NCBI GenBank assembly: GCA_052035175.1
Contig: JBPOHV010000001.1
Span: forward strand, 703,771-767,770
DNA length: 64,000 nucleotides
From: a candidate division WWE3 bacterium
GTDB taxonomy: Bacteria > Patescibacteriota > WWE3 > UBA101185 > UBA10185
Reading direction: 5' to 3'
Both the position numbers and the translations under genes were made by a program. A model generated the notes under the pieces. That model had not been told where the DNA came from. It saw only the letters and a program-made list of their open reading frames with translations, and searched no databases. Each line of letters opens with the position of its first letter. Position 1 is the first letter of the stretch. Of the stretch, positions 11,027 through 58,900 are shown piece after piece.

Positions 11027-11052
11027 GCTGAGAGTATACCAGAAGTAAAAAA

Positions 11053-11094
11053 AGGACTGTCCTTTAAGAGGTCAGTCCTCTATGAGGACTGATC
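11053..11094. repeat. REP-like palindromic element (GAGGTCAGTCCTC tat GAGGACTGATC)
   Basis: Inverted repeat in the ychF divergent intergenic region. Same core as the elements at 21175, 23514, 28578 and 29239. Confidence 0.6.
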
Positions 11095-15158: not shown

Positions 15159-16802
15159 TTATAAAGGTAATCCACCATCTAACATGTTTATAAGTTGTGA
15201 ACTATCTAGTTTTTCGCTTTGTACACCTGGCATAACAATATTTAAATCTGTTAAATTACCTACCTCCCTACTATCTGACTTCTTCCGAATATCTTGGTTT
15301 ACTATGCATGAAATACGCAATTTATTACCGTATATTTGAGAAAGAACTTCTTCTACAACAAGTCTATTGCGCACTACTTCTAGTCTTTCTTTGTGAAATG
15401 GGTAAGCCACTTCCAAATTTAGTATAGATTGATTTATAGAAATTGGCGTAGCATTTTTTATCAAAGTACATATAGATACATTTATACCAAATAAATTCTC
15501 GACAACTGTGGGCCAAAACTCTTTTATAGTCTCCAAACTTATTGTTTGTGCTATTTCTGCTGCCAAGTCTTGGTCTGATTTGGTCTGAGTAATCTCTGTT
15601 TCAGCTTGGCTTGCACCTGTCTCATCATTTGGCATTTGCTTCTCTATCTGAGGTTCACTATCTATAGAAATAGGACTAGCCTTCTTTTGTTGTGGTGCAG
15701 ACGGCGGTGCTTTTGGAGTAAAAGTAGCATTTAGAGTTTGTATATTGTTACCTCGGGAACAAACCTCACACAAAGCAATCTCTAAAGAAATCTGAGGAAT
15801 GTAGCTGTCTTTAATACCTGCTTGTGCAGATGAAAACAATTGCAAATAGAGTCCCAACATCTCTACTGTCAGATCAGTACTCACTGTTTTAAACGTATCT
15901 AAATCAAAACCATTAGAAATCAAATAGTCATGTGCGCCTGATTTATAAAACAAGAGATTACGAAGATAGTTTAAAAAGCCACCTGTCCAATAAAACAAAT
16001 CTGTACCAGATTTAGCAACATCACTAATATAAATCAAAGCGTTAGATAAGTCTTTTTCGATTAAAAAGTTTACAAAAACATCATAATCACTGTATTTTGA
16101 AGCTTCTATCAAAGAATCTGCATCTACACCACCCTCTATTACTTGTTGTAACAAAGTCTCTGCGTCTCTAAAACCACCAGCCGCACTGCGAGCTATCTTG
16201 ATCAAGTCAGACTTAGATACTTTTGCTTTTTCTTGTTGAGCTATAGAACCCAATTTGGTTACCAACTGATCCATGCTAGCAGACTTAAATTTGAAAACCT
16301 GGCAACGAGATTTTATAGTATCAGGAACTTTGTGCAATTCCGTTGTGCATAAAATAAAATGCACATGAGCAGGAGGTTCTTCTAACGTCTTGAGCAAAGC
16401 ATTAAATGCCTCTGTTGTTAACATGTGGACCTCATCTATAATGTATATTTTATTTGTACCTGTAGATGGAGCTAGATTAGCTTTCTCGCGCATACTTCTA
16501 ATATCGTCAATGCCTCTATGACTGGCAGCATCTATTTCTATAAGATCAATGTACGAACCATCGTTTATAGAGACACAAGCTGAACATGCATTACAAGGAT
16601 CTCCATTGGCTTGTAGATCTGTGCAATTGAGCGCTTTTGATAATAACCTTGCCGTGGTAGTTTTACCCACGCCACGAGGACCTACAAATAAATATGCGTG
16701 TGCAACTTTATGATCTAGTAACTGTTTTACCAACGCATCAGCTATTTGATTTGGTTTAGAAATTTCGCTAAAAGTTTGTGGTCTGTATTTGGTATAAAAC
16801 AT
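15159..16802 (-). CDS. dnaX: DNA polymerase III subunit gamma/tau
   Basis: FVGPRGVGKTTTARLLSKALNC, a zinc module and clamp-loader AAA+ motifs. Confidence 0.85.
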   Translation of the reverse strand: MFYTKYRPQTFSEISKPNQIADALVKQLLDHKVAHAYLFVGPRGVGKTTTARLLSKALNCTDLQANGDPCNACSACVSINDGSYIDLIEIDAASHRGIDDIRSMREKANLAPSTGTNKIYIIDEVHMLTTEAFNALLKTLEEPPAHVHFILCTTELHKVPDTIKSRCQVFKFKSASMDQLVTKLGSIAQQEKAKVSKSDLIKIARSAAGGFRDAETLLQQVIEGGVDADSLIEASKYSDYDVFVNFLIEKDLSNALIYISDVAKSGTDLFYWTGGFLNYLRNLLFYKSGAHDYLISNGFDLDTFKTVSTDLTVEMLGLYLQLFSSAQAGIKDSYIPQISLEIALCEVCSRGNNIQTLNATFTPKAPPSAPQQKKASPISIDSEPQIEKQMPNDETGASQAETEITQTKSDQDLAAEIAQTISLETIKEFWPTVVENLFGINVSICTLIKNATPISINQSILNLEVAYPFHKERLEVVRNRLVVEEVLSQIYGNKLRISCIVNQDIRKKSDSREVGNLTDLNIVMPGVQSEKLDSSQLINMLDGGLPL

Positions 16803-21174: not shown

Positions 21175-21384
21175 GGGTCAGTCCCACCCAAGGACTGACC
21201 TTTATAGCATCTGTGCCAAAATGAAAGTTGTAAAACCAAGATAAAATAGACATTCTAATCGATTTTACAAAGATCGCATACTAAATTTTATAGAAATAAC
21301 GTGTAAAGTTACAGTAAATGTTGTTAGTATAGGTAATTGTAAGTACAGATGTTAGATAGGTACAGTACTTTTGAAGGACAGATC
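21175..21384. repeat. Composite repeat unit: REP-like hairpin (GGGTCAGTCC-n6-GGACTGACC, 21175-21201) plus the AAGTACAGTACTT-TGAAGGACAGATC motif (21359-21384)
   Basis: A homologous unit of about 210 bp lies at 23514-23729 in the same orientation. Confidence 0.6.
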
Positions 21385-23488: not shown

Positions 23489-23513
23489 GATTGCAAGGAT
23501 ACCACACAGAGAC

Positions 23514-23729
23514 AGGGTCAGTCCCCTTCGGGGACAGACCCTACCCAGATGTGTACCAAAACAAACCTTATAAATACAACCAAAAATGACTAGAAGGTGC
23601 ATATCCACCAAAGATCGCACCGCAAATCCGGAAAACTTTTCAACATAAAACAACGCATATCCGTATAGCTATAATAAAGCCACGGTACAGGAGTTAACCA
23701 AGTACAGTACTTCTGAAGGACAGATCCTC
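23514..23729. repeat. Second copy of the composite repeat unit: hairpin AGGGTCAGTCCCC-ttc-GGGGACAGACCCT (23514-23542) plus the AAGTACAGTACTTCTGAAGGACAGATCCTC motif (23700-23729)
   Basis: Direct-repeat partner of 21175-21384. Confidence 0.6.
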
Positions 23730-23781
23730 ACTTAGTCCCGTACCTACAACTTAGAATGGCGGTCGCGTATGTATAAAACTA

Positions 23782-23810
23782 TTGACAAAACCTATGATAC
23801 CTGATATATT
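23782..23810 (+). promoter_or_regulatory. Sigma70-like promoter (TTGACA, 17-nt spacer, TATATT)
   Basis: Read directly from the sequence; it lies upstream of the lipoprotein gene. Confidence 0.5.
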
Positions 23811-23893
23811 ATCTATCGTTAATACCCAAACATCGGCATATCTCCCATACCGGGAAAAACAAAAATATGCCTAACAATTCAAGGAGAAATCTC

Positions 23894-24280
23894 ATGTTCA
23901 AAAAAATTGCCCCCTACCTCGCCTTACTGTTACTGGTCCTCGCAAGCCTGGCTTGCGGACTGGGCAACCCCCAAAAGATTGGGGGGACGACCGACGGACT
24001 TTCGGGGCAATCCCCCACGGCGGAAGCCGTAGAGGCACCAACTGAAAGCCAGACGGGCACTATGCCCGCGATGGTCATCGGTACTCAACCAAAAACCTTG
24101 GCTGAATTCCGAAGCTGCAACAAAACACTTGTCGATTGGCAAGCCCTCAAAAACACCTCAACCCTAACCGACATGGCTACCCCATGCCGAGTTGCCGCCT
24201 GGCAGGGCATTGAGGTTGATGGGGTCGTCTACGATCCCACCACTGAAGAGGGCTTTAATGCCCTCTCGGCGATGCCCTAA
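23894..24280 (+). CDS. Small secreted protein or lipoprotein, GC-rich and codon-atypical
   Basis: AAGGAG RBS, signal peptide MFKKIAPYLALLLLVLASLAC. High GC3 (CTG, GGC, CCC and ACG codons). Confidence 0.5.
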   Translation: MFKKIAPYLALLLLVLASLACGLGNPQKIGGTTDGLSGQSPTAEAVEAPTESQTGTMPAMVIGTQPKTLAEFRSCNKTLVDWQALKNTSTLTDMATPCRVAAWQGIEVDGVVYDPTTEEGFNALSAMP

Positions 24281-24397
24281 GGGCATCACAAAGCCGCCAT
24301 CTGGCGAAAAGGAAAAGTCTATCGAGCTTCGGCTTGATAATCAACTTTATCTTTTCCCACTGGCGGCTTTTGTCGTTCTATAGGTAGTTTCTAGTAA

Positions 24398-26242
24398 CTA
24401 ATACCCCTGTTTCTCAAACCACAAGTCCATCAACTTCCTCGCTATTGGAGCAGCGTCGTCAGCTCCTCCACCACCACCTTCTATAAAAACAGTCAAAACT
24501 ATTGGTTTAACATTGTCTTTTACTTCTAAAGGACCAAAAACAGTAAATAACGCGTGTGTACCGTATTCGCCATTTGGCTTGTAATACTCAGATGTACCAG
24601 TTTTCCCAGCTATCTCTAAACCTTTATGCTTATCAGCAAAATCAAAAAAAGGATACCCTGTACCTCCGGGGCTGACAGCTAGCTTTAAACCATCCCTTAC
24701 AATAGCAAGCGTCTGATCATCGACAAAGCCTTGCGACTGAATTTGTGAAGTATGCTCAGGCTCGCCTTCAATTTCATTTACGACTCGAGGTACAAAAATC
24801 TTACCTTGAGATGCAAAAAGGCTTGTAGCCTGGTTTACCTGCAAAATAGTGCCCAAGACGTCACCTTGCCCTATCGAAGTAATATAAGTATCTCCCAAAT
24901 ACCAAGCTCGTGATTTACCATCAGGAAAATAGCCTGCAACCTCACCATTGAGGTCTATCCCAGTTTTTTGACCAAAGCCAAACAATGTTGCCCATTTGTT
25001 TATTTTATTTATTCCTAAGCCACCAACACCGTTGTATCCCCCACCCATTGTATAAAAATAAGTATCATTGCTTACTTGCAAGGCTTTGAATAAATCTACA
25101 TCGCCATGACCATCTAATTTCCAATTTTTAAAAGTCGACCCACCTATACTTATAAAACCTGGATCAAATATTTGATATTTTTCTGAAACTAATTTTTCCA
25201 TCAAAATTGCACTTGCCATAACCATTTTAAAAGTTGAACCAGGTGGATACACAGCAGCTATTACACGATTAAAAAATGGAAATCGTTCATCAGTATTTAA
25301 CTTTGATAACTCTTCTGGAGAAATATTGTTAGACATTTTGGTTGGGTCGAATGAAGGATAGCTAACCATAGCCAAAACACCGCCAGTTGTCGGATCTTGC
25401 GCAATAATCGCACCTCCTGTTGATTTTGCTTCTGGGTCGTCTAATTTGGTTTTTAATAAATCGTACGCTAAAACTTGAAGATCTTTGTCTAAATAAGTTT
25501 TGAGATTGCGACCAGCAAATGCATCGCGCTTGTCTATTTGCTTAAAGTGACCACCCAAAGAATCTGATTCGACAATTTGCGAACCTGGAATACCAGATAA
25601 ATACTTATTATAAAATTGTTCTACTCCAGTTTTACCTACAATTACAGGAGATAAACTGTCAGACAAGCCCACATACCCTAATACGTGCGCAAAAGCTTCA
25701 CCATAAGGGTATTCGCGAACTGGAAAAGAGCTTATAGAAATACTAGAAAACTTATCGATATTTGAATCGATAGGCAAGATTTGCTCTTTTGACAAACCAG
25801 AGAGTATCAAAATATTTGTGTTATTTTTGTTTATTTCTTCTATTATTTTTGTATCGTCAAAAGGAATTAGTTTTTTTAATGTCTCTACTTCAACAAAACA
25901 TTTATCAAATTTTCCAGCAGCATCGACGCATAATCTTGTATTCATTTGTATACTAAAGGCTGGCTTGTTTCTGGCCAAAATCTCGCCATTTCTATCAAAA
26001 ATAGCACCGCGTTCTGCAGGAATAACAAATTCTAGAAATCTATTGTCATCAGACAAATTCTTGTATTTATAATAATCTACAACTTGCAACTGGACACTTC
26101 TAAAAATAAAAAGACAAATGAAAGCAACAACAGATACCGATAAAAACACCAAGAGTCGTTTTTTAGATATTTCATCTACACTAAACTTTTTGTCTTTGGG
26201 AGTATAAAAAGGTACAAAGTCAAAAACCTGATCCTCATTCAT
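24398..26242 (-). CDS. mrdA: Penicillin-binding protein 2 (peptidoglycan D,D-transpeptidase)
   Basis: GSTFKMV (SxxK), SNDTYF (SxN) and GKTGTSE (KTG), plus an N-terminal TM helix. Confidence 0.85.
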   Translation of the reverse strand: MNEDQVFDFVPFYTPKDKKFSVDEISKKRLLVFLSVSVVAFICLFIFRSVQLQVVDYYKYKNLSDDNRFLEFVIPAERGAIFDRNGEILARNKPAFSIQMNTRLCVDAAGKFDKCFVEVETLKKLIPFDDTKIIEEINKNNTNILILSGLSKEQILPIDSNIDKFSSISISSFPVREYPYGEAFAHVLGYVGLSDSLSPVIVGKTGVEQFYNKYLSGIPGSQIVESDSLGGHFKQIDKRDAFAGRNLKTYLDKDLQVLAYDLLKTKLDDPEAKSTGGAIIAQDPTTGGVLAMVSYPSFDPTKMSNNISPEELSKLNTDERFPFFNRVIAAVYPPGSTFKMVMASAILMEKLVSEKYQIFDPGFISIGGSTFKNWKLDGHGDVDLFKALQVSNDTYFYTMGGGYNGVGGLGINKINKWATLFGFGQKTGIDLNGEVAGYFPDGKSRAWYLGDTYITSIGQGDVLGTILQVNQATSLFASQGKIFVPRVVNEIEGEPEHTSQIQSQGFVDDQTLAIVRDGLKLAVSPGGTGYPFFDFADKHKGLEIAGKTGTSEYYKPNGEYGTHALFTVFGPLEVKDNVKPIVLTVFIEGGGGGADDAAPIARKLMDLWFEKQGY

Positions 26243-26693
26243 ATGCAGTATACCTTTTTAAACCTCGGCGTAATGCCAAATAGCACACCGATGCATATAC
26301 CACGCTCAGTATTGACCCAATTAGAATATATATATTCCAAAAACTATAGTTATAAATAAGCGATTTCATCAGTATTAAAAGTAAACAAAAAATAACTAGC
26401 ATTGTCGGAATATTCTTGATAAATCTCATGTACAAAAAACTCAAAATAAAGATTAATAGGACATAAATAAACGCTGTGAAACCTATAATACGCATGTCAA
26501 AAAAATCGATAAATAAACCACCACAAAAAGCTGAAAAAAACGCTAACCTGATATTTCCAAGTAATAAAAATGCAAAAGCGAGACTCAATGTAATAGTAGG
26601 ATTACCTGCTACACCAAAAAGCTCATAAAAAAATGATTTTTCCAAAACACTCGATATTAATAAAACAAAGAAAACTGTAATATATTTTTTCAT
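26235..26693 (-). CDS. mreD: Rod shape-determining protein MreD
   Basis: Small multi-TM protein between mreC and mrdA. Confidence 0.6.
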   Translation of the reverse strand: MKKYITVFFVLLISSVLEKSFFYELFGVAGNPTITLSLAFAFLLLGNIRLAFFSAFCGGLFIDFFDMRIIGFTAFIYVLLIFILSFLYMRFIKNIPTMLVIFCLLLILMKSLIYNYSFWNIYILIGSILSVVYASVCYLALRRGLKRYTAYE

Positions 26694-27469
26694 AATGACT
26701 TTAATACGAAAACTTTTGTAATTTCTGAAATATTGTAATCCAACTTTAAAATAGCTGATTTCAAAGTGTCTGAAGGAGAAGATTCGATAGAAACAACAGT
26801 GCCCAAAATCAATCCGGGAATAAACTTACCATCGCGACCAGACGTAACGATTACATCTGAGATATTTAACACTTCACTTTGTAATATCTTTTCTAAAGCC
26901 AACGATGTGCCATATTTTCCTTTTACAATGCCTTCTACATGGAAATCAGAACTTTGACTAAATGCTGTAGCACTAAAATCTGGAGAAGTTACCAAACGAA
27001 CTTTTGATCTAAATTGTGTTGCTTCTATTACATCACCCACCAAATACTTCTGTATCACAACACTATCCCCTACTGTTACAGCATCGGCTAGACCTTTATT
27101 TATAAAAATTGTACCGCCAGAAATATCTTCTGGGTTACCCAATACATCTGCCAGTATAAACATAGGAGTATTTACACTTTCTATTTTGATATTTAACTGA
27201 CTCTTAAGAAATTCATTTTCTTGCTTATATTGTAAATACTGAGAGATACGAGAATTTAGAACAAGTATCTCTTGCTTATTAGCCTCGTAATCTTTATAAA
27301 TCGATTTTAAATGAAAATAAAAGCTTACAGAATCCTTGAGATTCTTGGCTGAAGACGACAAGCCATATTGCACAGGCGACATGATATACAAAAAACCATC
27401 TCTAACTCCATTTAACAAGCCAAAAAAACCTAACAAAAAGACTATAAATGCAAATAAAAGTACCTTCAC
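26690..27469 (-). CDS. mreC: Rod shape-determining protein MreC
   Basis: Signal anchor, coiled coil and the beta-domain motif FIPGLILGTV. Confidence 0.75.
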   Translation of the reverse strand: MKVLLFAFIVFLLGFFGLLNGVRDGFLYIMSPVQYGLSSSAKNLKDSVSFYFHLKSIYKDYEANKQEILVLNSRISQYLQYKQENEFLKSQLNIKIESVNTPMFILADVLGNPEDISGGTIFINKGLADAVTVGDSVVIQKYLVGDVIEATQFRSKVRLVTSPDFSATAFSQSSDFHVEGIVKGKYGTSLALEKILQSEVLNISDVIVTSGRDGKFIPGLILGTVVSIESSPSDTLKSAILKLDYNISEITKVFVLKSL

Positions 27470-27509
27470 AATCAGATTTTACAATTAGATGTACAACAAA
27501 CCAAATAAA

Positions 27510-28547
27510 TCAAATTTTTACTGTATTCAAAAGCTTTTGATCGTCTAGTACTTTGCCACAACCGCGCACTACACAAGTTATCGGATCTTTTGAAATATTG
27601 ACTGGAACACGCAATTCTTCTGATAACAATTTATCAAGGCCGCGCAACAAAGAAGTGCCCCCAGCAAGAACTATGCCATCACGAACTATGTCAGTCATCA
27701 AATCTGCCGGAGTTTCTTCTATTGCATCTTTTATACCATCGATAATTATATTTAAAGGTTGACGTAATGCTGCTCTGATTTCAGCAGATGAAACTTCTAC
27801 TGCACGCGGTAAACCAGACTTCAAATCACGCCCTCTTAAAGTGGCGGTATGCTTATCTTCGTTTGGAAATGGATAAACGTTGCCGATTAAAAATTTTATT
27901 TCTTCCGCAGTACGTTCACCCAATAATAAGTTGTGTTGATTCTTGGCAAAATTAACTATTTCCACATCAAACTCATCCCCTGCTACGCGTATTGATTTAT
28001 TTACTACTAAACCTCCAAGTGAAATAACGGCTATTTCACTTGTACCTCCTCCCATATCTACGATCATGGCTCCATTTGGTTGTGTAACATCGATACCCGA
28101 GCCAATGGCGGCAGCCATTGGCTCGTACAATAGATGCACTTCACGTGCACCTGCATTCTTCGCAGCATCAACAACTGCCTTACGTTCAACCGAAGTAGCC
28201 CCAGAAGGAATACCTATTACAACACGTGGCTTTGGGATACGTGGGAATTTTGTTGGCGTGTCGTGTATTTGCTTTATAAAATAAGAAATCATCTTTTGAG
28301 CCGCATTAAAGTCTGAAATAACTCCATCGCGCAAAGGTCTAATTGCCTCGATGTTCGCAGGAGTTTTACCAAGCATTTTTTTTGCCTCATATCCTACTGC
28401 CAATACCTCACGCGACTTTTTCATCACTGCAACAACGCTAGGTTCACGTATTATTATCCCTTTTCCTTTGACGTACACCAATGTATTGGCTGTACCCAAA
28501 TCTATGCCTATATCATATGAAAAATATTGCAGCAATGAGCTAAACAT
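27510..28547 (-). CDS. mreB: Rod shape-determining protein MreB
   Basis: DIGIDLGTANTLVYVKGKGIIIREPSVVAV actin-fold motifs. Confidence 0.9.
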   Translation of the reverse strand: MFSSLLQYFSYDIGIDLGTANTLVYVKGKGIIIREPSVVAVMKKSREVLAVGYEAKKMLGKTPANIEAIRPLRDGVISDFNAAQKMISYFIKQIHDTPTKFPRIPKPRVVIGIPSGATSVERKAVVDAAKNAGAREVHLLYEPMAAAIGSGIDVTQPNGAMIVDMGGGTSEIAVISLGGLVVNKSIRVAGDEFDVEIVNFAKNQHNLLLGERTAEEIKFLIGNVYPFPNEDKHTATLRGRDLKSGLPRAVEVSSAEIRAALRQPLNIIIDGIKDAIEETPADLMTDIVRDGIVLAGGTSLLRGLDKLLSEELRVPVNISKDPITCVVRGCGKVLDDQKLLNTVKI

Positions 28548-28577
28548 ATCAGGATGATATTACCACAGAGACTATGC

Positions 28578-28607
28578 AAGATCTGTCCTTCATAAGTACA
28601 GTACTTT
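28578..28607. repeat. REP-like element, reverse orientation (GATCTGTCCTTCATAAGTACAGTACTT)
   Basis: Reverse complement of the 21359 and 23700 motifs; 60 nt upstream of the RAYT gene. Confidence 0.6.
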
Positions 28608-28666
28608 CTAATATCGTTAGAATATACTCCCTTACTTTTTGTACATAAAAAGTTTATTTTTACGGT

Positions 28667-29272
28667 GTGCCTGAGAGAAACTCAATCAAACAATACATAT
28701 CAAATGGTACATATCATGTTTATAATCGCGGCAATGATAAACAAACAATATTTAATGATGATGAAGACTATAGATATTTCTTGCACTTACTGGCGGCATA
28801 TTTAACTAAACCAAATCATTTCCAAGAAATCAAAACAAGGTCCTTTTATAAAAAAATAAAACTTCATGCCTACTGCTTAATGCCAAACCATTTTCACTTA
28901 CTGCTAACTCAAAAAAGACGCATGGACATGGCAAAGTTTATAAAGTGTTTATCAACCAGATATACGCTATACGTAAATAAGAAATACAAAAAGACTGGAC
29001 ATCTGTATCAAGGAAGGTATAAAGCGCGCCTAATTACTTCTGATGCGGACTTTATGAACACAAGCAAATATATACATCGCAATCCGACAGATATTCCAGC
29101 AAAACTAGAATCTTATCAATATTCTAGTTTAGGGACATATCTCAGTAAACATCGTACACATAGTTTTCTCTACCACAAAGATATTTACAAGTATTTCAAT
29201 AACAATACACATGAATATAAAGCGTACATATTTCTAGAGGATCAGATCTTGGAAAGGACTGATCTGCTATAA
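28667..29272 (+). CDS. REP-associated tyrosine transposase (RAYT; IS200/IS605-like HUH Y1 transposase)
   Basis: YHVYNRGN, the HUH motif HFHLLL and the catalytic-Tyr motif GHLYQGRYKARLI. GTG start. Confidence 0.7.
   Translation: MPERNSIKQYISNGTYHVYNRGNDKQTIFNDDEDYRYFLHLLAAYLTKPNHFQEIKTRSFYKKIKLHAYCLMPNHFHLLLTQKRRMDMAKFIKCLSTRYTLYVNKKYKKTGHLYQGRYKARLITSDADFMNTSKYIHRNPTDIPAKLESYQYSSLGTYLSKHRTHSFLYHKDIYKYFNNNTHEYKAYIFLEDQILERTDLL
29239..29267. repeat. REP-like element, forward orientation (GAGGATCAGATCTTGGAAAGGACTGATCTG), overlapping the last RAYT codons
   Basis: Core GGACTGATC; inverted relative to the copy at 28578. Confidence 0.5.
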
Positions 29273-29279
29273 TCTCCAC

Positions 29280-31376: not shown

Positions 31377-31623
31377 GTAAAACCATACCATGGGGCTAGG
31401 CCCGGCTTAACCCTTTTTAAAAATATACAGCTTCACCATAAGTTAATTTCACAACTACACAAATAAAGTATTAGGGATTGGTATTAAAGTGATTAAATGC
31501 GTTCGAGTAAAAGAATAGAACGAAGGCTTAGCCCGGCTAGGCCCTTAATAGAACCGCACCGGCGAGGAAGAAAAAGGAAGGCATGGCCTAAGGCCTTTCT
31601 CCCTCACCGGGCACACGGCAACT

Positions 31624-32106
31624 TTAAGGAGTTGCCAGTTTAAAGTAATATATCGGGTATGTTATCTCCCCCCCGGAGACGCCAGTACCTGTTAACGTGA
31701 GGATAGGTACCTCACGATAAATTTTCTCTAATGGCCCGGAGAAAGGGCCATCAGTGTAGTACGGTACTGTAAGGCTTGGAAAATCGTACCAAAGACGACC
31801 TTCCACATTACGCGGGGCATAAGCTGTCAGGACGACCCGATCGTCCAACAAGCCCCGCTTACCACCAGCAGTAACATGGAGACGTAAATTCTCCACGAAA
31901 CCGTTTTCGAATTTTAAGACGAGAGTGAATTCACTCCCATCAAAAAATTCGGCAGTACCATCCTGCTTAAATTCAGCGCTCGTAATAGATATGAGCGCGC
32001 TGTCTTCAGGACCAGTTGGTCCTGAGGGCGTTGGCGAGGAACAACTTACCAACCAACAAAAAACCCCTAATAATAATAGGGGCATCAACCATTTTGCGCG
32101 TTTCAT
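31624..32106 (-). CDS. Lipoprotein, codon-atypical and GC-rich (lipobox LVSC)
   Basis: MKRAKWLMPLLLLGVFCWLVSC|SS signal and lipobox. Arg is encoded by CGC/CGG/CGT, unlike the AGA used in neighbouring genes. Confidence 0.5.
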   Translation of the reverse strand: MKRAKWLMPLLLLGVFCWLVSCSSPTPSGPTGPEDSALISITSAEFKQDGTAEFFDGSEFTLVLKFENGFVENLRLHVTAGGKRGLLDDRVVLTAYAPRNVEGRLWYDFPSLTVPYYTDGPFSGPLEKIYREVPILTLTGTGVSGGEITYPIYYFKLATP

Positions 32107-32276
32107 CGCGACCTCCAATGAAAAAAAGATTCTACTCTATCTCCAGCAGCTTGGTTGATAGAATTAGTATCAGATATACTACCCTATAGTTGTGTTTTTG
32201 GCAAATTAAAACTAGACCTGGTCTGACCAGGTCCTATATGTTAATCCCCCACTTTATGTGTATAATCATGTAGCCT

Positions 32277-46929: not shown

Positions 46930-46980
46930 AAATTAAACTTTACTAAATGTTGTTATTACAATATTTAACAAGGATTAAAA

Positions 46981-49900
46981 ATGCCTATATCTGCCCAAGA
47001 TAAAACATCGAAATACGATTTCACAAATTCATTACATTTAACTGTTTCAGAGGCAGCGAGTTTATTAAAAGTATCCCCTACTACACTGAGAAGATTTGAG
47101 AACGAACACAAAATTTCTTCGACAAGGTTACCAAATGGCTATAGAGTTTTTGACATTAAAGATATAAACAATCTTAAGAATTCTTTGGAAACTCAAAAGT
47201 TAAGTAAAGAAAAAAATAAAGGAAAAAAAGTATTAAAAACTATAAACAGAAACATTGATGCATTAAATAAATACACTGTACAAACACAAACTCAAAAAAA
47301 ACCAATCAATAAGTCTATAAGAAATAAATATCTTTTATCCAACGCAATAGTTTTGGTGATGGGTGTTTATGCAATTTTAACTTTCAGCATTAATAAAAAT
47401 ATACCAACAACTGGATTGACATCCCTCGTTATATCTACAAGCAATAAAGCTTTAAGTACAACAAATGACAACCTTATAACAAACAAAATAACAGATACAC
47501 AAGTAAGTAATGTATTAGCTTTGGGAGACCAAAGACCTGACTATTCTTTTAATACTAGCGTAAATGCCAATTTTGAAAAGCTACTCAATGTTACCGGCAT
47601 ATCCAATTTGAATGGTGGAATAACAACACCGACAATTACTTTTACAGAAACAGGCACAATTAATCAATTGGATGCTATTGATGATACAACTGAGACCACT
47701 TTAGAAAATGCATTAGATATAAATGGTGATGTTGTAGGAACTGGATTAAATAATACACAAATAGCAGACAGTGTCATAGAAGGAACAAATCTTGTAGAAG
47801 ACTTTGAGTATACTGGTAATTTCAATTTTGCAGGTACATGGTTGATCGATGGTAGTGAAGTTACCGCAACAGCTGAGCAAATTAATTTGTTTGCAGATAT
47901 CAGTGCAACATCTGACGAAATTAATTATCTGTCTGGCGCAACTGTTGATAATGGCGGTTTAGTATTTGGTAACGGCTCAAGCTTTGCACAAGATCCGATA
48001 AATCTGTTCTGGGATGATACAAATAACAGACTTGGAATAGGAAATACTACTCCGGCTTATACATTGGATGTTACAGGTGATATTCGTGTAAGTTCAGCGT
48101 CTGACATATATGTAGGTGCAAAAGGTCTGAACGATACTGGTGCTACTGCTGCAGATTCTGGAGCTACATTAGTAGGTGTATTTGATGAATTTAACAATTC
48201 TAACAGTACTACAGTTCAAGCAGTACTAAATGACCTGGATGCTGCAGTTAGTGCTGGTGGATCTGAATGGACGCAAGACACCGGTTTCATTTACCTGACA
48301 AACACTTCTGACGAAGTAGTAATAGGAGGAAATGCATCGCTTTCGAGTAAATTTGCGATAAACGGTGATGCTGATGAAACACAACTCTTAGTACAAGGTC
48401 ATTCTACACAAACAAACAATTTGGCAGTATTTGAAAATTCATTAGGTACTGATGTCTTTACAATAAATAATAGCGGAAATGTAACTTTGTCAGGAACATT
48501 AACTTTAAATAGCGAAACAATATCAGATTTTACAGGTGATGGTTTGTCACTATCTGGCGGTGCTTTGACTATAGATTTAACATCTCCAACCGATGCATTG
48601 TCTTCCACTACATCCAGCGGATCTGGGTTGGAGGTTATCACAACTGGACTTACGCTATTACAAGGGTGCAACAATGGCGAAATATTAAAGTGGAACGAAA
48701 CTAACGATTCTTGGGAATGCGGAACTGATACAGGAGCTTCATTTGCAATTGTAGATGTTCAAAACAATGATGTATCAGTTGGATCAAATGTAGATACAAT
48801 TGATTTTTCTACTGATTTTAGTGTAACCGCATCCCCTTCTAATGAAGCAAACGTTGCAATAGCAGATGATGTTTTGAACTTCACAGAGATTGCAGACGCA
48901 CTTTCACTTGACGCTGCAACAACTATCACAAACGCACTAGCTGGAAACTTAACAATAGATCTAACTTCTACTGGTGATTTTGTAATAGCTGATGGAGGGT
49001 CTGCTGTTTATACATTTACTGATGCAGGCGGTCTTACACAAGCAGGTACAGGACAAAACACGTTTACTGGTAACATCGACGCCACATTAGGAATAGATGT
49101 GACAAATGCCAATCTCACTGTCGGTGGATCAAACTTCAGTGTAGATTTTTCAAACGGAAATACAACAACTGCTGGCACCTTAGCAGTGAATGGTGATTCC
49201 ATTACATCTGATGGAACAACCTTAGCTATTAATGCAGCCGGAAATGTAGACATACAAGATATTTTAAATGTAGATTCTTTGACTACAGATACTGGTGGTA
49301 TCACAATTACTAGCGGACAAGATCTAACTATCGGGGCAATAGGATTGAATGATTTGGGTACAAATAATGCTACATCTGGAGCATCCCTAGTTGGAACATA
49401 CGATGAATTCAATAATTCAAATAGCACTACTGTACAAGATGTTTTGGATGATTTAGACGCAGCAATTGGTGCAGGAGCTTCTAAGTGGACACAAGACACT
49501 GGATTTGCATATTTAACAAATACTACAGACTCTATCACAATTGGTGGAAATACTGAGCTTGGTAAGTTAGCTGTCGACGGTAATGCTGATGAAGTTCAAT
49601 TGCTAATCCAAGGTAATGGCACACAAACAAACAATTTGGCAGTATTTGAGAACTCTGCTGGTGTTGATCAGTTTACTGTAACAAACACAGGAGACTTAAC
49701 TATTGCAGGTGACCTTGCTATATCTGGAGGAAATATAACCACAGCAGTAACGTTTGACTCTACAGCAACATCGACAGGTACTTTAACAGCAAATGGTACG
49801 TTTGATGCGAATGGTGTTGTAACTCTAGGAGACGGAAGCGACAATATAGCAATCGATGGCAATATATGGGACATAACATCAGCAGGTGTAGGAACAGGCT

Positions 49901-52900
49901 TTACTTCTTTTACTATAGACAATGTTATTGTTGATGGCACAACCATTGGACATACTTCAGATACAGACTTGCTCTCTCTTGCAAATGGAGCGCTAACGGT
50001 AAATGGTACTGGTACATTTACCGGTGTATTAGCAACTAATGCAACAACATTAGGTTTGGATGCTGATGCTGACACAGATAATTATTTTACAGTAGGTGCA
50101 AGTGGTACAGCTGGTGATGCTTCTAACGATTTGTTCTGGGGTCAAGATTTGTTGTGCGATGTCAGTGCTACAAATTGCGGTTGGGCTACTGCTGCTAGTG
50201 CATTTAGTTCATGGACAATCGCCGACAATGATGGCAGTTCGTACGCAATAGTCGATTCAAACACAATCAGATTTACTACAAGTGATGGAAATGTCATAAC
50301 TAATTTAACAAATGGCGATGATGCCGATGAGAATTTGGATTTAACTGTAAGGCTACTTGGAGACATAGTAGCTGGTGCGGGTCTAACCGGTGGAGCTGAC
50401 AATATATTAGTTGGTGCAGACGCAGATACCACAATTACAATCGGTGCAGGAAACGGCATCACTGTAAATGCAGATGATGTTGCAGTAAATCAAGACTACG
50501 ATTTTACATTTACAGGGAATAATACATTTACTCCAGCAGGAACTGATGATCTTACAATAAACCTTGATGACGATTCTCTACTTTCTATAAATCAAACTTT
50601 CTCTGGAACAACAACAGCAAATGGTTTAACACAAACAATCACAAACTCATCAACATCAGGTACACAAAATGCATTTTATTTAGATAATGCAGCTTCAACA
50701 GGTGTAACAGATTCACTATTTGTCATAGATAACAGCGATACTGACACTGCAGTGACAAATGCAATTCAATTTGTAGATGCAGGCGGCGGATTCACAAATC
50801 TTTTCAATGTTGCTGGAACATTAATATCACCTGCTGAATTTACAATACTCGATGGCGGAATTAACTTAGCGTCTTCTTCGGAAGTTACAGGTATATTACC
50901 TCTTGCAAATGGCGGAACTGGAGCAAATCTCGTTGATCCAAATGCTGACAGAATATTTTTCTGGGATGATACTGCTGGTGCATCTACATGGTTAGCTGCA
51001 GATGGTACAAGCATTGAGATAGCAGGAACAACACTGCAACATGTCGACACTTCTACACAAGCGAGTGTAAATAACTCAACGACAACTGTGATTCAAGATA
51101 TAACGCTTGATACATATGGGCATCTTACAGGAATTACATCTGTTGATCTTGCTTCAAGTTTTGATAATTATGGTCAGTGGTATTATGCTTTGGACTTTAC
51201 TAGCCCCTTACCTATAACAAGCGGTCAGACTTTGACATATATGTCTGGTAACGATATAGACATAACAAACAGTGGAACCAGGCAGATTACAGTAGCACTT
51301 GAGTCGACACTTGACATAGTTTCAACCATCAATCTAGCAGGAACAGGCACATTAAACGGACTTGATGCTGTCGATGCTACAACAGAAAATACGATAGAGG
51401 GATTAATTTTTGATAACGATGCAGAAAATATTACAGGCGTATGGGAAGTTCAAGACGACACAAACTTTGTATTCGGTAACGATGCCAATGTAAGGTTTGC
51501 ATATAATGAGATTTACGATTTATTCGAGATTAGTACCCCCAGCATTGCGGCACAAAATACAGATTATGCACTTTATACACTTTCAACCGACAATACTAAT
51601 GCCGGAATGACAGCCGATCAAGAAGTATTTGAAATAGGAAAAGGTGGAAGCTTCAACGCTGACATGAACTATGTAGAATTGTTAGCACTAGATGAAGATG
51701 GAGATTTGTCTGTAACTGGCACTGGTACTTTTAATGGTGTATTAGCAACTAATGCAACAACATTAGGATTGGATGCAGATGCTGATACAGATAACTACTT
51801 TACAATTGGTGCAACAGGTACAGCCGGTGATGCATCAAATGACTTATTCTTTGGCCAAGACTTGCTATGCGATGTTTCAGCAACTAACTGCGGTTGGGCA
51901 ACAGCTGCATCTTCATTTACATCATTCACATTAGCAGGAGATGCTGGTGGAGGACAAACTATATCAAGTACTGACACTTTGAGCGTGCTTGGAGGTACAA
52001 ACGGAATAGACACTATAGACTCTGCTACAGATACAGTAACACTCAACCTTGATACTACTGAAATAGGTACTACAACTTTTGGTAGCGGTTCTGCATTTGC
52101 GTGGACATTTAATGCAGGAACAACTGATCCTGTCATAGGCTTTGGCGATGATCAATTAGATTTAGGCTCGGCTACAACTGGACTCAGATTAACTACAGAT
52201 GGCATACTTTCTGATATTGATGATGCAAATGTTTCAATAAATGATGGCTTACAATTTGTAGGCGCACAAACTATATCTACATCTTCTGGAAACTTAACAA
52301 TTGATACTGCTGGTACATTTATCATATCTGACGCTGTAGATTTAAATAATACACTAGACTTAGATATCTCTTCTGCATCAGCATTTACAGTTGGCGATGG
52401 CTCTATAAATACATTTAGTATAGACACAGCAAACGATTTAATCGCTTCAACAGGAAATTATGTAGCTACATTTACATCTCTGGTTACAAACACACTAGCA
52501 AATGGTGCTGGATCAAGCTCAACAAGTCTAACTGTGGACGACTCCACAGGATTTGATGTTGGAAATTATGTGAGAATAGATTCGGCGTCAAACTGTGACT
52601 CAGGCATAACAACTTGTTATTCTAAGATAAGACAAATTGTAGGTAATGTTATAACACTTAGAAATGCACTCACTTGGACAGATAACTCAACAATAACCGA
52701 ATATCATATTCCAGAAATTGGCGGTACAAATACTGCAGAAGCATTAACAGATAGATTTGGTCGCGGTTACTTTATATCTGGAACTGTCGCTGGTAATGCA
52801 TCAACATACTATGACGATAGAAGAATATATACGACAGATACTACGAGTTCTAACTCTCCATCTTTTACGATAAGCACTGGAACAACAACCACATCAGGAA

Positions 52901-55900
52901 ATTCTGGAGATATAACTATAGACACTGGTGTAGCAGCAGGGACTGAAGGACAGATATATCTTGGTAACACAAACGCCAGTGCAATAACTATTGGTCATGC
53001 AGGTGTTACAACAACAATCGGTGGATCGATAATAATTAATAGCCAAGAATTTGCTAATCTTACTGGACAAGGTTTGGCTCTCGATGGCAGCAACGTACTA
53101 AACTTTGATTGCTCAGAAGTAGAAGGAACTGATATCGATTGTTCTGGTGAGAATATAACTTTGGAATCAACTATTGACTCAATTTCTACGTTGAATTTGG
53201 CAGGTACAGGTACTTTGAACGGACTTGATGCTGTCGATGCAACATCAGAAAATACTATTGAAGCATTGATATTCGATAATGACGCTGAAACTATTACAGG
53301 TGTGTGGGAAGTCCAAGACGATGTAAACTTCGCATTTGGAACTGCTGCAAATATCAATTTTGTATACAATCAAACAGACGATTTATTTAATATAAATGCA
53401 ACATCAACTGCATCACAAAACACTGACTACGGGCTTTATACACTTTCAACCGACAATGCTAATGCCGGAATGACAGCCGATCAAGAAGTATTTGAAATAG
53501 GAAAAGGTGGAAACGACGACTCTGACACAAACTATATAGAATTGTTAGCACTAGATGAAGATGGAGATTTGTCGGTAACTGGCACTGGTACATTTACCGG
53601 ATCACTTGCAACCAACGCAACTGCTATCGGGCTTAACAATGATGCAGACACTGACAACGTACTATCATTTGGTGCAGGGTCTGCTGGTGCCGCATCGGGT
53701 AATTTATACTGGGGAAATGTTTTGGTATGCGATGCCTCACAAGCCAATTGCGGTTGGGTAACTTCTAGCGGTTCTGGTGCTTCTAAATGGACTGATGGTG
53801 GAGATCATATTTACCCAACTGGCGGAGAATTTTTGGGTGATGACACATCAAATGGAGCAAATAAACTAGCTGGCGCATATTTCTTGGATGGCGCTCCCCT
53901 AGTATTGGGAACAACAAATGATATTCAATTTGCTTATGATGAAACAACTGACGATCAATTAGAAATAAGCGATGGTACAAATGATTTCTTAACTATCAAA
54001 GATAATGGCACTACAGCAACATTTACTTTTGACAACATCGTACAAATTGGATCAGATGGTCAAGACGGACAATTTGTTTTATACAATGAATTAGGTGCTA
54101 CTGATTACACAAACACTTTTGCTTTGAGTGGAACACAATCTCAAGATATAACGTATACATTACCAGCAAATGACGGCGGAGCTAGCCAAGTCTTATCTAC
54201 AAACGGGTCAGGAGTTTTGACATGGATTGACGTATCTGGTGGTGCTGGCGGATATACTGGTTGGGCGATTGCAGATGATGACAATGATACATATACAATT
54301 TCTTCTGGTGATCAAATAAAGCTTTATTCGTCTAGCAATGTTATTACAACAAACTTGATAAATGGGGACGATACTCTCGATGAAATAGATTTGGATATAG
54401 CAGATGATTCTTTGAATTTCACAGAATTTGCAGATTCTCTATCTGTCGATGCAACAACTGATATAAATCTTGGTACATCTAATTTAACTGTTGATTTAGA
54501 CTCCACTGGGATATTTGACATAAGAGATGGTGCAACAACTTACTGGAGTTTTGACGATGACTCAACTGTAGATGTTACCTTCCCTGCTGCAGGATCTTTA
54601 ACAATAGACTCAGCTACTACAGATTCTACTTTAACAACAGGTATATTTGATCTTAATGTCGATACCATAACTACAGGAAATATTGGTTTTAATATCGATC
54701 ACATTATTAGAGACTCAGCAGGCATCACTGCTTATGGTCAAAGAATTAATACAACTATAGATACTGACGCTGCTGAAAGCTCAACCGGATATGGACTTTA
54801 CATTAGTGGAACAAACAATGATGCCTCCTCTACCCTGACTGGTCTTTATGTAGATGCAGGAACTGGTGCTGGTACTGAATATGCTGCTGCGTTTATGAAT
54901 GGGAATGTGGGTATTGGAATAGCCACACCAGAATCAAAACTCCATATTAACAACGCTGATACTGCAGCAAATGGCCTTAGACTATCTTATAGTGAAGCTA
55001 GTTACGACGACCAATACTCTCTTGATTTATACTCAGCAGGTGGATCAGGTGCATTTATAGATGCTGCAACAACAACTAATGGATTAACAATAAGAACTTC
55101 ATCTAATGCAACTAGAACAAATTTAGCCGCCAGAATGGTAATCCTAGGAGGCGCTAATGCAGGTAACGTAGGTTTATCTACTACTGCACCTGATGCAAGA
55201 CTTGAAATTAACCATGCTACCGGAGATAACTTAAGACTTACTTATAATGACGCTGATGGCACAGCATCTAACTACACCGACTTCTCGCTTGCTTCAGATG
55301 GAGATTTGACAATTGATTCAGCTGGTGGCGCTATCAACTTAGCATCGGGCGATGATTTAAATATCACAGCATCAACCGACTTGATATTTGGAACAACAAC
55401 ATCACTCGGAGAATCAACAGGAGCTACAGACTCTGGTGCATATCTGGTGGGAGTTTTTGATGAATTCAATAGCTCAAACGGAACTAATGTACAAGATGTA
55501 CTCGATGACCTCGATGCAGCTGTAGGTGCTGGTGCTTCTAAGTGGACACAAGATACAGGATTTATTTATTTAACTGGTTCAACAGATAGCGTAACAATTG
55601 GCGGAACTACAGAACTTGGAAAACTCGCTGTAGATGGCGATGCTGATCAAATACAATTATTAATCCAAGGTAATGCTACACAAACATCTAACTTAGCTGT
55701 ATTTGAAAATTCTGCAGGAGCTGATCAACTTGTTGTAACAAACACAGGAGACTTAACTATTGCAGGAGATGCAACAATTACTGGTAATTTATTAACTTTT
55801 GGTAATGGAGAAACAATTGATAACAATGCTGACGGAACAATCGCACTAAATCCAACAGTATTAACACTAACAGGAACAACAACACTTAATGGTACATCTT

Positions 55901-58900
55901 TAACAGCAATCAATGGTGGTGCAACAGCAATAGACTTTACAGAATTTGATGTAGCAGCTGCAACTGGATCTGTGACAATAAATGACGGTGGAGATCTAGG
56001 AAGCCTTACAGTAGAAGGAACTGTACTGGATATAAACTCACTTGATTTTGTTGGAACAGGTGCAATTAATACTACAGACTGGGATATCTCATCAACAGGA
56101 GATTTAACTGGAATTGGCGGAATTACAGCAGATGGCGCAATCAGCTTCACCCCATCATCTACAAACGACATAACATTTGGCGTAGATACAGATTCATTGT
56201 TTACCTTAGATTCAAGCGTTGCTAATGCAGATAACTTTACCTTCTCACCAAATAATGCTGGAACGGGTGCTACGTTTACAGGAACTCTGACTTCAGCAAA
56301 CTTAACTGCTGATAGAACATGGACTTTGAAAGATGCTGATGGAACAATCGCCTTCTTAACTGATATCCCAACATCTGATAATTATCAATATTGGACATTA
56401 GATGGTGATGATGCTGACACCGAGCAAATTGGCAGTACTAATACCCTACTCGTAGCCGGTGGTACAAATGGAATAGATACAGATGTTTCTGCAACTGACA
56501 CAATTACTTTAAATCTTGATACTACTGAAATAGGTACAACAACTTTTGGTTCAGGATCAGGAATAACCTGGACATTTGATGCCTCAGCTGGAACAGACAC
56601 AGCAGTTGCTTTTGGAGATAATTTGCAAACATTAACTACAGCAACGTTAACTCTTTCTGGAACAACAACATTGAACGGCACTTCCTTAACTGCAATAAAC
56701 GGTGGTGCAACTGCAATAGACTTTACTGAATTTGATGTAGCAGCTGCAACTGGATCTGTGACAATAAATGACGGTGGCGATTTGGGAAGTCTTACTGTAG
56801 AAGGCACTGCATTAGATATAAATTCTCTTGATTTTGCAGGTGTTGGTTCAATAACTACAGGTGGATCTACAGATTTAACACTAAACCCATCTGGGGGCAA
56901 TGTAATAGTAACTGATGGCGATGTTTTGGATGTATACGGAACAACAATTGGTTTGAACAACGATGCAGATACAGATAATGTATTTGGACTCTCAGCATCA
57001 GCAGGATCAGCAGGGTCTGATATCTACTGGGGTGATGACTTACTTTGCGATGTTAGCGAGGCAAATTGCGGATGGACTACTGCAGCTTCATCATTCACAG
57101 GATTTAGTATTAGCGATGGATCAACTACAGAAGGTATAGCTTCTGCTGACACAATCACATTCGCAGATTCTTCTACTATTAATGCTGCAGTATCTGCAAC
57201 TGATACTGTGACAATGAATGTCATAGCAAACTCACTAGACTTTGCACACCTTGAAGATACTTTAGACCTCGATGCAACTACTGAGATTAATCTCGGGGCA
57301 AATAATTTAGTAATAGATCTTGATTCGACTGGTGATTTCGTAATTAATGATGGCGGAATAACATTCGCAACCTTTATGGATAATGGCCGTTTGGGTTTGG
57401 GAACAAGTCAAGACTTACAACTCTATCATGATGGTTCAGATGGTTATATTTCAGGTTCAACCGGAGGTATAATCGTCAACTCTTCTGCAGGCAATGTAAT
57501 CCTTGGTAGCAACAGTGGAAGCTGGGTTGGAGTTGGGGATGTATCACCAGATGCACAATTTGATGTCGACTATATATCAACAAACACTACCGCAGGAACA
57601 GAGTTAGGCAGTTACTTTACAATGGCAGATACAGGTATAGTTACGACAGGTTCTGATATTACAATCGGTATAGAAAATGATGTTACAAGAACTGGCGCAA
57701 CCGGTGGAGCTTTGGTTACATATGGAATACAAAACAATATAACAGCTGATAATGCTGGGAGTGGCTCATCTACAGCATACGCATATTATGCATCATTTGG
57801 TGGACTTGCAGATTTCTCATATGCATTTTTTGCAGACGATGGAGATATAGAACTTCAAGAAGATGGTACAGGTGTAGTTGGTGCTGGTGGCAATTTACTA
57901 CTTGGTGCTAGTGAAGATTTCAAACTATATCACAATGGCAGTGATTCATTTATGCTCGGTACAGAAAATGACCTTTATATCGGAGCTGATTCAGGAACTG
58001 CAAATTCTCAGATTAAGTTTGGAAACGAAGGAGCATCAACTGTATATGGATACTTTATAACTGGATCGTCAAATACAGGAGACTTTGTAGTTGACACAAA
58101 TACACTCTATCTAGATGCATCTGCCGATAGCTTGGGAATAGGAACTACTGCCCCCGACGCAAGACTAGAAATCAACCACGCAACTGGAGATAACTTAAGA
58201 CTTACTTACAACGATGCAGATGGCAGTGCAACTAGCTATACAGACTTCTCTCTCGCTTCTGATGGTGACCTAACAATAGACAGTGCTGGAAATAACATTG
58301 CATTTGGTGCTGCAGATATAATTACTGCATTAGCAAATATAAATGCCGATGGTGGATTGGATATTGATGATGCATTCGTAATTGCTGATGGTGGCGTACT
58401 AACAACTTCTCAAACTGCAAATTTTGACGGTGCTGCTGATTTTGATGGCAATGTACTTATCTCTGATACCGACATAGCATTTGATGGTGCTTCTACAACT
58501 TTTACCACAACAGGGGCATTTACATTAACACCAGGTGGTGCAGTACTTCTTGGCGATGGTGGAGATACATTGCAAATCAACACGTCAGATTGGGACATAT
58601 CAACTACTGGTGACTTAACAGGAATTGGCGGAATAACTGCGGATGGCGCAATCAGCTTTACCCCATCATCTACAAACGATATAACATTTAATGTAGACAC
58701 AGATTCATTGTTCACACTTGATTCATCAGTGACAAATGGCGACAACTTGGTATTCTCTCCAAATAATGCTGGAACTGGGTCAACATTTACCGGAACTCTG
58801 ACTTCTGCAAACTTAACTGCTGACAGAACATGGACATTGCAAGATGGCGATGGAACTATTGCCTTCTTAACTGATATTCCAACATCTGATAACTATCAAT

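Follow-up and report, generated by a model that had tools for sequence, protein, structure and literature searches.

The 64-kb stretch of DNA analysed here (the window) belongs to the approximately 925-kb genome of a candidate division WWE3 bacterium, a member of the Candidate Phyla Radiation (CPR). Between mreB and def it carries one intact gene for a Y1/HUH protein, and a family of short palindromes both brackets this gene and recurs at several other sites. An earlier reading of the letters alone (the original prediction) had proposed that the gene encodes a RAYT (a tyrosine transposase linked to repetitive extragenic palindromes, REPs) responsible for the scattered palindromes. This raises the question of whether the gene and the palindromes constitute one system and, if so, of which kind. 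To our knowledge, work on RAYT/REP systems has dealt almost exclusively with Proteobacteria. Our analysis indicates that the locus is probably a RAYT-like cassette of the REPtron/TIRtron type, in which a class 2 Y1 endonuclease gene is bracketed by its own cognate repeats.

The open reading frame (ORF) contains the three motifs by which it had been recognised (YHVYNRGN, HFHLLL and GHLYQGRY) and passes the Pfam Y1_Tnp profile (PF01797; cut-off 23 bits) with a score of 45.8 bits (E 8e-12), which bears out the predicted Y1/HUH identity. The HUH motif corresponds to H75-F-H77, the catalytic tyrosine to Y135 within the segment YIHRNP (residues 135–140), and the tail motif to YSS (residues 152–154). 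An alignment of 33 homologues showed that H75/H77, Q82, Y135-I-H-x-N-P and S153-S154 are invariant. When the single protein was compared with the PDB by phmmer, only spurious actin-related matches were returned and a profile was required; the profile of the homologue alignment matched ISDra2 TnpA (E 4e-4) and Escherichia coli TnpA-REP (PDB 4ER8; E 0.01). In these alignments H75 and H77 are in register with the catalytic residues of both enzymes, and Y135 is aligned with the catalytic Y132 of ISDra2 TnpA and with Y115 of TnpA-REP. The AlphaFold (AF2) model of the protein (pLDDT 87) has as its best PDB match 4ER8, the structure of TnpA-REP bound to a REP hairpin (E 2e-5, TM 0.67 on target, root-mean-square deviation 3.8 Å over 161 columns). 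The structures of IS200, IS608 and ISDra2 transposases were poorer matches (TM about 0.5–0.59, with high deviation), and the top Foldseek matches were Y1 transposases throughout. The protein family, fold and catalytic residues are established by these comparisons. By analogy with these enzymes, the gene would encode a catalytically intact HUH/Y1 endonuclease with the corresponding enzymatic activity and mobility.

Within the Y1 superfamily, class 2 (RAYT-like) proteins feature a Y---NP tyrosine motif, whereas the transposases of IS200 feature Y---Q (PMC6006769). The Y---NP motif places the window protein in class 2. Subclass 2.1, the largest RAYT-like subclass (PMC6006769), corresponds to group 1 of Bertels and largely to the TIRYTs of Di Nocera et al. 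2013 (PMC3733652), and its second variant is characterised by NH[YF]H, FQ, Y[IV]HLNP and an SS tail (Quentin et al. 2018, PMC6006769 Table 1). The consensus of the clade to which our protein belongs reads NHFH, lFQGRY, YIHRNP (YIHLNP in several members) and YSS, the window protein itself having YQ instead of FQ. By this comparison of motifs, which is not a classification by hidden Markov models, the Y1 protein fits subclass 2.1/TIRYT best. It differs from typical members of that subclass in its length (201 aa against a median of 238) and in lacking a detectable C-terminal helix-turn-helix (HTH) or DnaA_C-like domain: no match to Bac_DnaA_C, HTH_23 or HTH_28 was found, Y1_Tnp being the sole Pfam match at E <= 1, and the C-terminus of the AlphaFold model consists of short helices.

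The gene is bracketed by two modules, both of which are members of the same repeat family (Table 1). Upstream, the predicted element was found to consist of GATCTGTCC (28580–28588) followed by AAGTACAGTACTT and to end 60 nt before the GTG start codon. This left-end module spans the interval 61–87 nt before the Y1 start and 33–59 nt before the start of the divergent mreB gene, and occupies the usual site of the upstream palindrome in homologues. An inverted copy had also been predicted at the 3' end of the gene. Such a copy, GGACTGATC, is present at 29256–29264 inside the last 11 codons of the Y1 gene, but it is not the exact reverse complement: GGACAGATC, the reverse complement of GATCTGTCC, is matched by GGACTGATC at 8 of 9 positions, the central base being different. 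The right-end module ends 15 nt before the def start codon.

All repeats listed in the original prediction share a single architecture, in which two or three 9-mers of the form GKWCWGWYC are separated by spacers of exactly 7 nt (the 9-7-9 module). The hairpin motif and the AAGTACAGTACTT-TGAAGGACAGATC motif, which had been described as two types, are both instances of it. The 9-mers, whose variants include GGACTGTCC, GGTCAGTCC, GGACTGACC, GGACAGATC, GATCAGATC and GTACAGTAC, have dyad symmetry (GGWCWGWCC and local variants) and follow one another with a unit period of 16 nt. The pattern GKWCWGWYC-N7-GKWCWGWYC, with up to one mismatch allowed, was found at 8 positions (13 strand-hits, where 0.02 would be expected). 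For the core GGACWGAYC the window contains 10 matches although 0.83 would be expected, a count reached by none of 100 shuffles, and all of them fall at the sites first listed. Five of the repeat loci are dispersed. Both the architecture of the repeats and their enrichment are established by these counts. Since adjacent units are often complementary, they can form 9-bp hairpins with 7-nt loops on single-stranded DNA (ssDNA), and the hairpin-type modules are stable in this form (z-scores of -3.6 to -5.7), with the exception of the weaker right-end hairpin (dG -5.4, z -2.1).

Table 1. Positions of the Y1 gene, its bracketing modules and the repeat-containing elements in the window.
Feature	Position	Strand	Description
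Y1/HUH gene (RAYT-like, TnpA-Y1 class 2)	28667..29272	+	201 aa, GTG start, stop 29270-29272
Upstream (left-end) module	28580..28606	-	GTACTGTAC-TTATGAA-GGACAGATC; includes palindrome AAGTACAGTACTT (28594-28606)
Two units (9-7-9 pair of left-end module)	28580-28604	-	
Downstream (right-end) hairpin module	29240..29264	+	GATCAGATC-TTGGAAA-GGACTGATC
Two units (right-end module)	29240-29264		
Solo three-unit array (two hairpins)	11054..11094	+	GGACTGTCC-TTTAAGA-GGTCAGTCC-TCTATGA-GGACTGATC; divergent intergenic region; z -5.7
Composite element A, ~210 nt	21176..21384	+	between topA stop and rpsB start
Three units, third degenerate (element A)	21176-21216		hairpin module 21176-21200, degenerate third unit 21208-21216
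Two units (element A)	21360-21384		GTACAGTAC-TTTTGAA-GGACAGATC
Composite element B, ~210 nt	23516..23726	+	between topA start and 137-aa ORF
Three units (element B)	23516-23556		hairpin module 23516-23540, third unit 23548-23556
Two units (element B)	23702-23726		GTACAGTAC-TTCTGAA-GGACAGATC
Candidate distant relative, membership uncertain	32216..32234	.	perfect odd palindrome ACCTGGTCTGACCAGGT(CC), GGTCTGACC core

The repeat sites away from the Y1 gene had been described as intergenic. On a crude ORF map, according to which about 91% of the window is coding, the hairpin at 23514–23542 was scored as coding (29 of 29 bases) because of an over-extended TTG ORF for topA. A Logan gene call and homology support a TopA of 700 aa starting at 23488. 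With this correction all repeat sites are intergenic, apart from the module that overlaps the 3' end of the Y1 gene. A further sequence, L086, is identical to window positions 8103–29245. The GC skew of the window gave no origin or terminus signal usable for orienting the elements. Scans for GTACNGTACTTNNGAAGGACNGANC in collections of genome and metagenome contigs, which contain neither the source genome nor close relatives, returned a chance match in Macrococcus and none in metagenomes.

The four sites at 21.2–21.4 and 23.5–23.7 kb, which had been regarded as separate, are in fact parts of two composite elements, A and B. They represent two copies of one element in the same orientation on either side of topA; their ends are 75–89% identical and their interiors, equally long, are 49% identical. 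Three conserved islands (TGTRCCAAAA, AAAGATCGCA and GTACAG..GTTA) are recognisable within the diverged interior. Read on the minus strand, both elements present GATCTGTCC-N5-AAGTACWGTACTT, the interior and then the hairpin, which is the order of the ends in the gene cassette, and their first approximately 100 nt (the left end) align with the region upstream of the Y1 ORF. Remnants of Y1 (RAYT) coding sequence were not detected in A or B above shuffled controls. That the repeat family bracketing the gene recurs at these sites and in the 11-kb array agrees with the original proposal that a RAYT system accounts for the scattered palindromes of the window, which now fall under a single explanation. 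Adjoining element B, a 137-aa ORF (23867–24280) lies between this element and the gene for penicillin-binding protein 2 (PBP2); it has no Pfam match and no counterpart at that position in the related WWE3 locus described below, and could be lineage-specific cargo.

Three of the genes with a repeat module upstream share a further feature. Extended -10-like boxes are located 10–13 nt before the starts of mreB (TGG-TAATAT, 28548–28575), topA (TGG-TATCCT, 23489–23513) and a ychF-like gene (TGG-TATACT, 11027–11050), all on the minus strand, so that the leaders would be very short. In each case a 9-mer of the repeat family lies 14–17 nt further upstream.

A working REP/RAYT pair had been expected to be unusual in a reduced, CPR-like genome. 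Our searches contradict this expectation: the Y1 protein has 4554 matching homologues, whose named members are Patescibacteria throughout, and at least 589 metagenome loci encode such homologues, most with the same bracketing palindromes. In a library of representatives at 50% identity, 22,295 proteins matched with E <= 1e-3, of which 124 also reached E <= 1e-30. A comparison with 5.8 billion proteins gave a best non-self homologue of only 46% identity, and the cluster containing the protein has no other member, which argues against multiple copies of the gene. Among 80 metagenomic homologue loci selected for a study of flanks, 75 could be evaluated for shared repeats and 60 of these contain a repeat common to the upstream and downstream flanks, well above shuffled controls. 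In the flanks, odd palindromes (arms of 6 nt or more) reach a density of 2.59 per kb, five times the 0.53 per kb observed elsewhere. RGG-N5-CCY describes the best palindrome of 52 of 66 upstream and 53 of 66 downstream flanks, and the median centres lie 38 nt ahead of the start codon and 16 nt beyond the stop codon. The two copies have the same orientation (direct) in 22 loci and are inverted in 16. In another organism (L004), AAGGACTGTCCT-(C/T)GC-AAGGACAGTCCTT is found on either side of the Y1 gene. GGACWGTCC was considered as a universal flank motif and rejected, since only 5 of the approximately 80 homologue loci contain it.

The central pentamer of the flank palindrome varies by lineage (CCAGG, TCCGA, TTCAA, AGACT, ACGGA, ACAGT and others), and its class tracks the relatedness of the proteins: in 21 of 67 cases the nearest protein neighbour has the same core class, where 5.6 such cases would be expected, and 0 of 1000 permutations were as high. 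These data establish the association of gene and palindrome across the CPR, and the gene-plus-palindrome cassette is common among these tiny-genome bacteria rather than an oddity.

By its TopA the organism is identified as candidate division WWE3. The TopA most similar to that of the window is 65% identical, and hence no close relative was present among the sequences compared. In the WWE3 genome GCA_014729135.1 (locus L003), whose TopA is about 61% identical to that of the window, we identified a 42%-identical Y1 orthologue at the same def/mreB locus. It lies between def-fmt-L28 and mreB-mreC-PBP2-topA and is inverted relative to these neighbours. The orthologue is flanked by inverted repeats of 35–65 nt containing GGGACAGTCC-TTTAAGA-GGACTGTCCC, whose first 9-mer and spacer match window site 11054 except at the central base of the 9-mer. 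In four further loci mreB lies within 6 kb of the Y1 gene, and no 9-7-9 modules were detected in 44 kb of two WWE3 loci that lack the Y1 gene. With this synteny established and a single copy in the window, the Y1 gene behaves like a resident, vertically inherited, low-copy gene rather than an insertion sequence.

Comparison of the WWE3 loci also revealed several differences. The Y1 cassette itself is opposite in orientation between the window (28548–29279) and L003:9877–10701, its neighbours keeping theirs, which suggests that it was inverted in place, for instance by recombination between the flanking inverted palindromes. At L003:13899–13976, the PBP2 gene contains an in-frame array of five GGACWGTCC units with a 16-nt period and alternating orientation. 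Compared with the PBP2 of the window, this array makes a variable region of the protein about 20 residues longer, and it looks like an intragenic insertion of REP type. In two other WWE3 loci (L087:9429–10001 and L088:9380–10001) def adjoins topA and the whole Y1-mreB-mreC-mreD-PBP2 block is absent, and the ends of the corresponding window block (23489–29279) coincide with the hairpin modules at 23516–23540 and 29240–29264. A different repeat of 28 nt in L003, with CATGGAGTATCATACT and the palindrome GAGTATSATACTC, has three copies upstream of genes including topA (L003:5115–5264 and 15497–15534). It has no relation to the Y1 palindromes and resembles a promoter or operator common to these genes.

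In canonical RAYT/REP systems the hairpin has a 5' GT[AG]G guide at its foot, and the dispersed REPs and REPINs number tens to hundreds per genome. The enzyme with the best structural match, E. coli TnpA-REP (a RAYT, YafM; PDB 4ER8; Nunvar 2010; Messing 2012, PMC3479197), has the same HUH/Y1 fold as our protein, and the HUH motif, the Q-x-R segment, the Y---NP motif and the aromatic-S-S/T tail align between the two. As in the E. coli REPtron, a single-copy gene is bracketed by palindromic repeats that are also present at other intergenic sites, and the short arrays of units in alternating orientation are reminiscent of bacterial interspersed mosaic elements (BIMEs). The two proteins share, however, only about 16% identity, and the W of the WQ motif in TnpA-REP is replaced by Y or F here. 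The repeats differ as well, since the unit is a dyad-symmetric 9-mer with a 16-nt period, appears low in copy number and lacks the GT[AG]G guide. This tetranucleotide stands at the hairpin foot in only 3 of 105 homologue flank palindromes, and among the window hairpins GTAG occurs only on the minus strand of that at 23514–23542.

The TIRYT/TIRtron group resembles our system in that its flanking repeats are unrelated to GTAG REPs and its dispersed families are at most moderately abundant. Di Nocera et al. 2013 describe heterogeneous inverted repeats only, with GGGGWSAS as the published terminal inverted repeat (TIR) motif (PMC3733652). A candidate match to this motif, GGGGACAG, is found at window position 23530 and in the downstream flank palindrome of L003. 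Many cores of the clade (GGACAG, GGTCAG, GGAGAC) fit GG-W-S-A-S, whereas others (GGTCCG, GGTTCA, GGCCAG) do not. Quentin et al. 2018 reported no REP-like structures beside 2.1 genes (PMC6006769); in contrast to that survey, approximately 80% of the CPR genes of this clade have a hairpin-forming palindrome on each side. The surveys of 2.1 genes and TIRYTs (Quentin 2018, Di Nocera 2013) did not include CPR genomes. The system would work like RAYT/REP or TIRYT/TIR, but the protein scores below the NCBIfam cut-off for RAYTs and the GTAG guide of canonical REPs is lacking. The locus is accordingly not a canonical REP/RAYT pair as originally proposed, although the class 2 motif and the best structural match are those of a RAYT.

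Based on E. coli TnpA-REP (4ER8) and on the IS608 and ISDra2 transposases, a mechanism can be proposed in which the Y1 protein would bind the repeat hairpins when the DNA is single-stranded, for example on the lagging-strand template, would cut beside them through Y135 with formation of a 5'-phosphotyrosine link, and would then rejoin the ends. Occasional copying of the cassette-end modules to other intergenic sites could have produced the solo array at 11 kb and elements A and B. The latter would be miniature elements of approximately 210 nt made from the left end (GATCTGTCC-N5-AAGTACWGTACTT) and the right end (hairpin) of the cassette in the same relative order. DNA binding and cleavage, action on ssDNA and past mobilisation are thus what we infer from these related enzymes.

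Several results weigh against this proposal. With the NCBIfam equivalog for REP tyrosine transposases (NF047646, REP_Tyr_transpos) the ORF scores 52.8 bits, short of the cut-off of 80. The best-conserved modules, namely the three of the form GTACWGTAC-N7-GGACAGATC, are not stable as hairpins (z about -1), so that double-strand or operator-type recognition fits as well as recognition of ssDNA. The two gene flanks in the window itself are too diverged to pass the ungapped test of flank repeats, and our repeat counts cover the window, a small part of the genome. Elements A and B, with 49% identity between their interiors, are old copies, without any sign of recent activity. Outside the cassettes, 269 kb from 34 other CPR loci contained 6 exact flank cores against about 3 expected; a few of these are clearly real long palindromes, but with numbers barely above chance mobilisation is rare at best. 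Real room is left for a regulatory role by the few copies present, by how old A and B are, by the absence of a hairpin in the best-conserved modules and by the fixed palindrome positions.

Such a role is the basis of the main rival explanation, according to which the palindromes are cis-regulatory (operators, 5'-leader hairpins or mRNA-end hairpins) and the Y1 protein, as a domesticated regulator, or some other factor controls its own gene together with the neighbouring essential genes mreB, topA and rpsB, with no mobilisation today. The palindromes keep fixed positions in dozens of lineages (medians of -38 and +16) that resemble those of promoters or operators and of transcript ends, and the 9-mers upstream of TGG-TAnnnT boxes before mreB, topA and the ychF-like gene, as well as a promoter-like CTAACA-18-TATACT in element A facing rpsB, are consistent with this. 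So are the best-conserved modules that do not fold, the rarity of dispersed copies in other CPR loci, and the preservation of element ends around decayed interiors. Promoter-like sites are nevertheless not enriched in the region (18 against 29.5 expected), none of the modules or palindromes is terminator-like, and the in-frame array in the L003 PBP2 gene looks like an insertion event and not a regulatory site. Invariance of the catalytic HUH and tyrosine residues across the clade would, moreover, go unexplained if the protein merely bound DNA. We consider this explanation rather unlikely; it is compatible with a RAYT-like cassette and the two are not exclusive. A reading in which A and B encode small structured RNAs or serve rpsB and topA as 5' leaders, with an incidental or secondary likeness to the RAYT flanks, appears highly improbable. 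It draws on the three islands at fixed positions in an otherwise diverged interior, on the location of both elements directly upstream of essential minus-strand genes, and on the minus-strand RNA fold of A (z -4.5). The fold of B, however, reaches only z -1.8, Rfam gave no match at the gathering threshold across the whole window or at E <= 1 in 20.9–24 kb, and there are only two copies for an analysis of covariation. The ends of A and B are, in addition, the same 9-7-9 modules that bracket the Y1 gene in the window and in L003.

A further possibility, that the locus is an autonomous element of IS200 type, would interpret the hairpin-tnpA-hairpin unit of approximately 690 bp as an insertion between mreB and def, and A and B as its non-autonomous deletion derivatives, similar to miniature inverted-repeat transposable elements (MITEs). 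IS200/IS605 transposases such as those of IS608 and ISDra2 share the superfamily and the catalytic chemistry, and the compact layout with dissimilar left and right ends is that of IS200/IS605. Elements A and B keep the order of these ends, and the profile also matches ISDra2 TnpA. We regard an autonomous element of this type as very unlikely because of the Y---NP motif, which is that of class 2 and not the Y---Q of IS200 (PMC6006769), the single copy, the synteny and the lack of tnpB in the neighbourhood. No second copy or close paralogue is known; an orthologue occupies the same locus in as distant a genome as that of L003, and linkage to mreB extends to other CPR lineages. Structurally, TnpA-REP is the better match than IS608 or ISDra2, and neither A nor B contains a RAYT coding remnant.

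The RAYT-like cassette remains our preferred explanation. A broader version, which we consider unlikely, would see in the 2.1-like Y1 clade a long-domesticated host system of the CPR, tied to a hairpin of fixed design and to a neighbourhood of cell-shape and topoisomerase genes. The design comprises a stem closed by RGG/CCY with a 5-nt top, often in arrays of 16-nt period. The end modules mark the borders of the Y1-mreBCD-PBP2 block that is missing between def and topA in other WWE3 loci, and they also bracket topA. If this were true, the enzyme-hairpin pair would rearrange, invert or regulate blocks of essential genes and not merely spread junk repeats.

In our search of the literature no description of RAYT-like cassettes in the CPR was found, the sole co-mention being incidental. 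Subclass 2.1 has no known DNA partner, and its CPR relatives offer a conserved, testable candidate substrate in the form of a hairpin on each side of the gene, with a core that co-varies with the protein lineage; this provides a concrete set of oligonucleotides for biochemistry. Even genomes of approximately 1 Mb retain such pairs of enzyme and repeat, at a locus conserved between distantly related organisms, which supports the view of RAYT-like proteins as domesticated transposases. The Y1 genes of this CPR clade are routinely annotated automatically as 'transposase', a blanket label that is probably misleading.

Additional features were observed elsewhere in the window. The candidate distant relative of the repeat family listed in Table 1 lies 43 nt upstream of tRNA-Trp (z -4.7). 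Nearby, a segment at 31490–32120 differs in GC content (48.5%) from the surrounding DNA (about 35%) and may be foreign; it is located within a cluster of tRNA genes (Thr, Tyr, Thr ... Trp). On its minus strand is an ORF of 164 aa that lacks a Pfam match and whose N-terminus is lipoprotein-like, and AGTACGGTACT at 31758–31768 resembles the AAGTACAGTACTT palindrome. At the far end of the window (46969–64000), a single ORF of more than 5,677 codons runs off the edge. It is highly repetitive internally, with many repeats of 150–300 nt at 61–92% identity, has an HTH-like N-terminus (SEAASLLKVSPTTLRRFENEHKI), and probably encodes a giant surface or adhesin-type protein.

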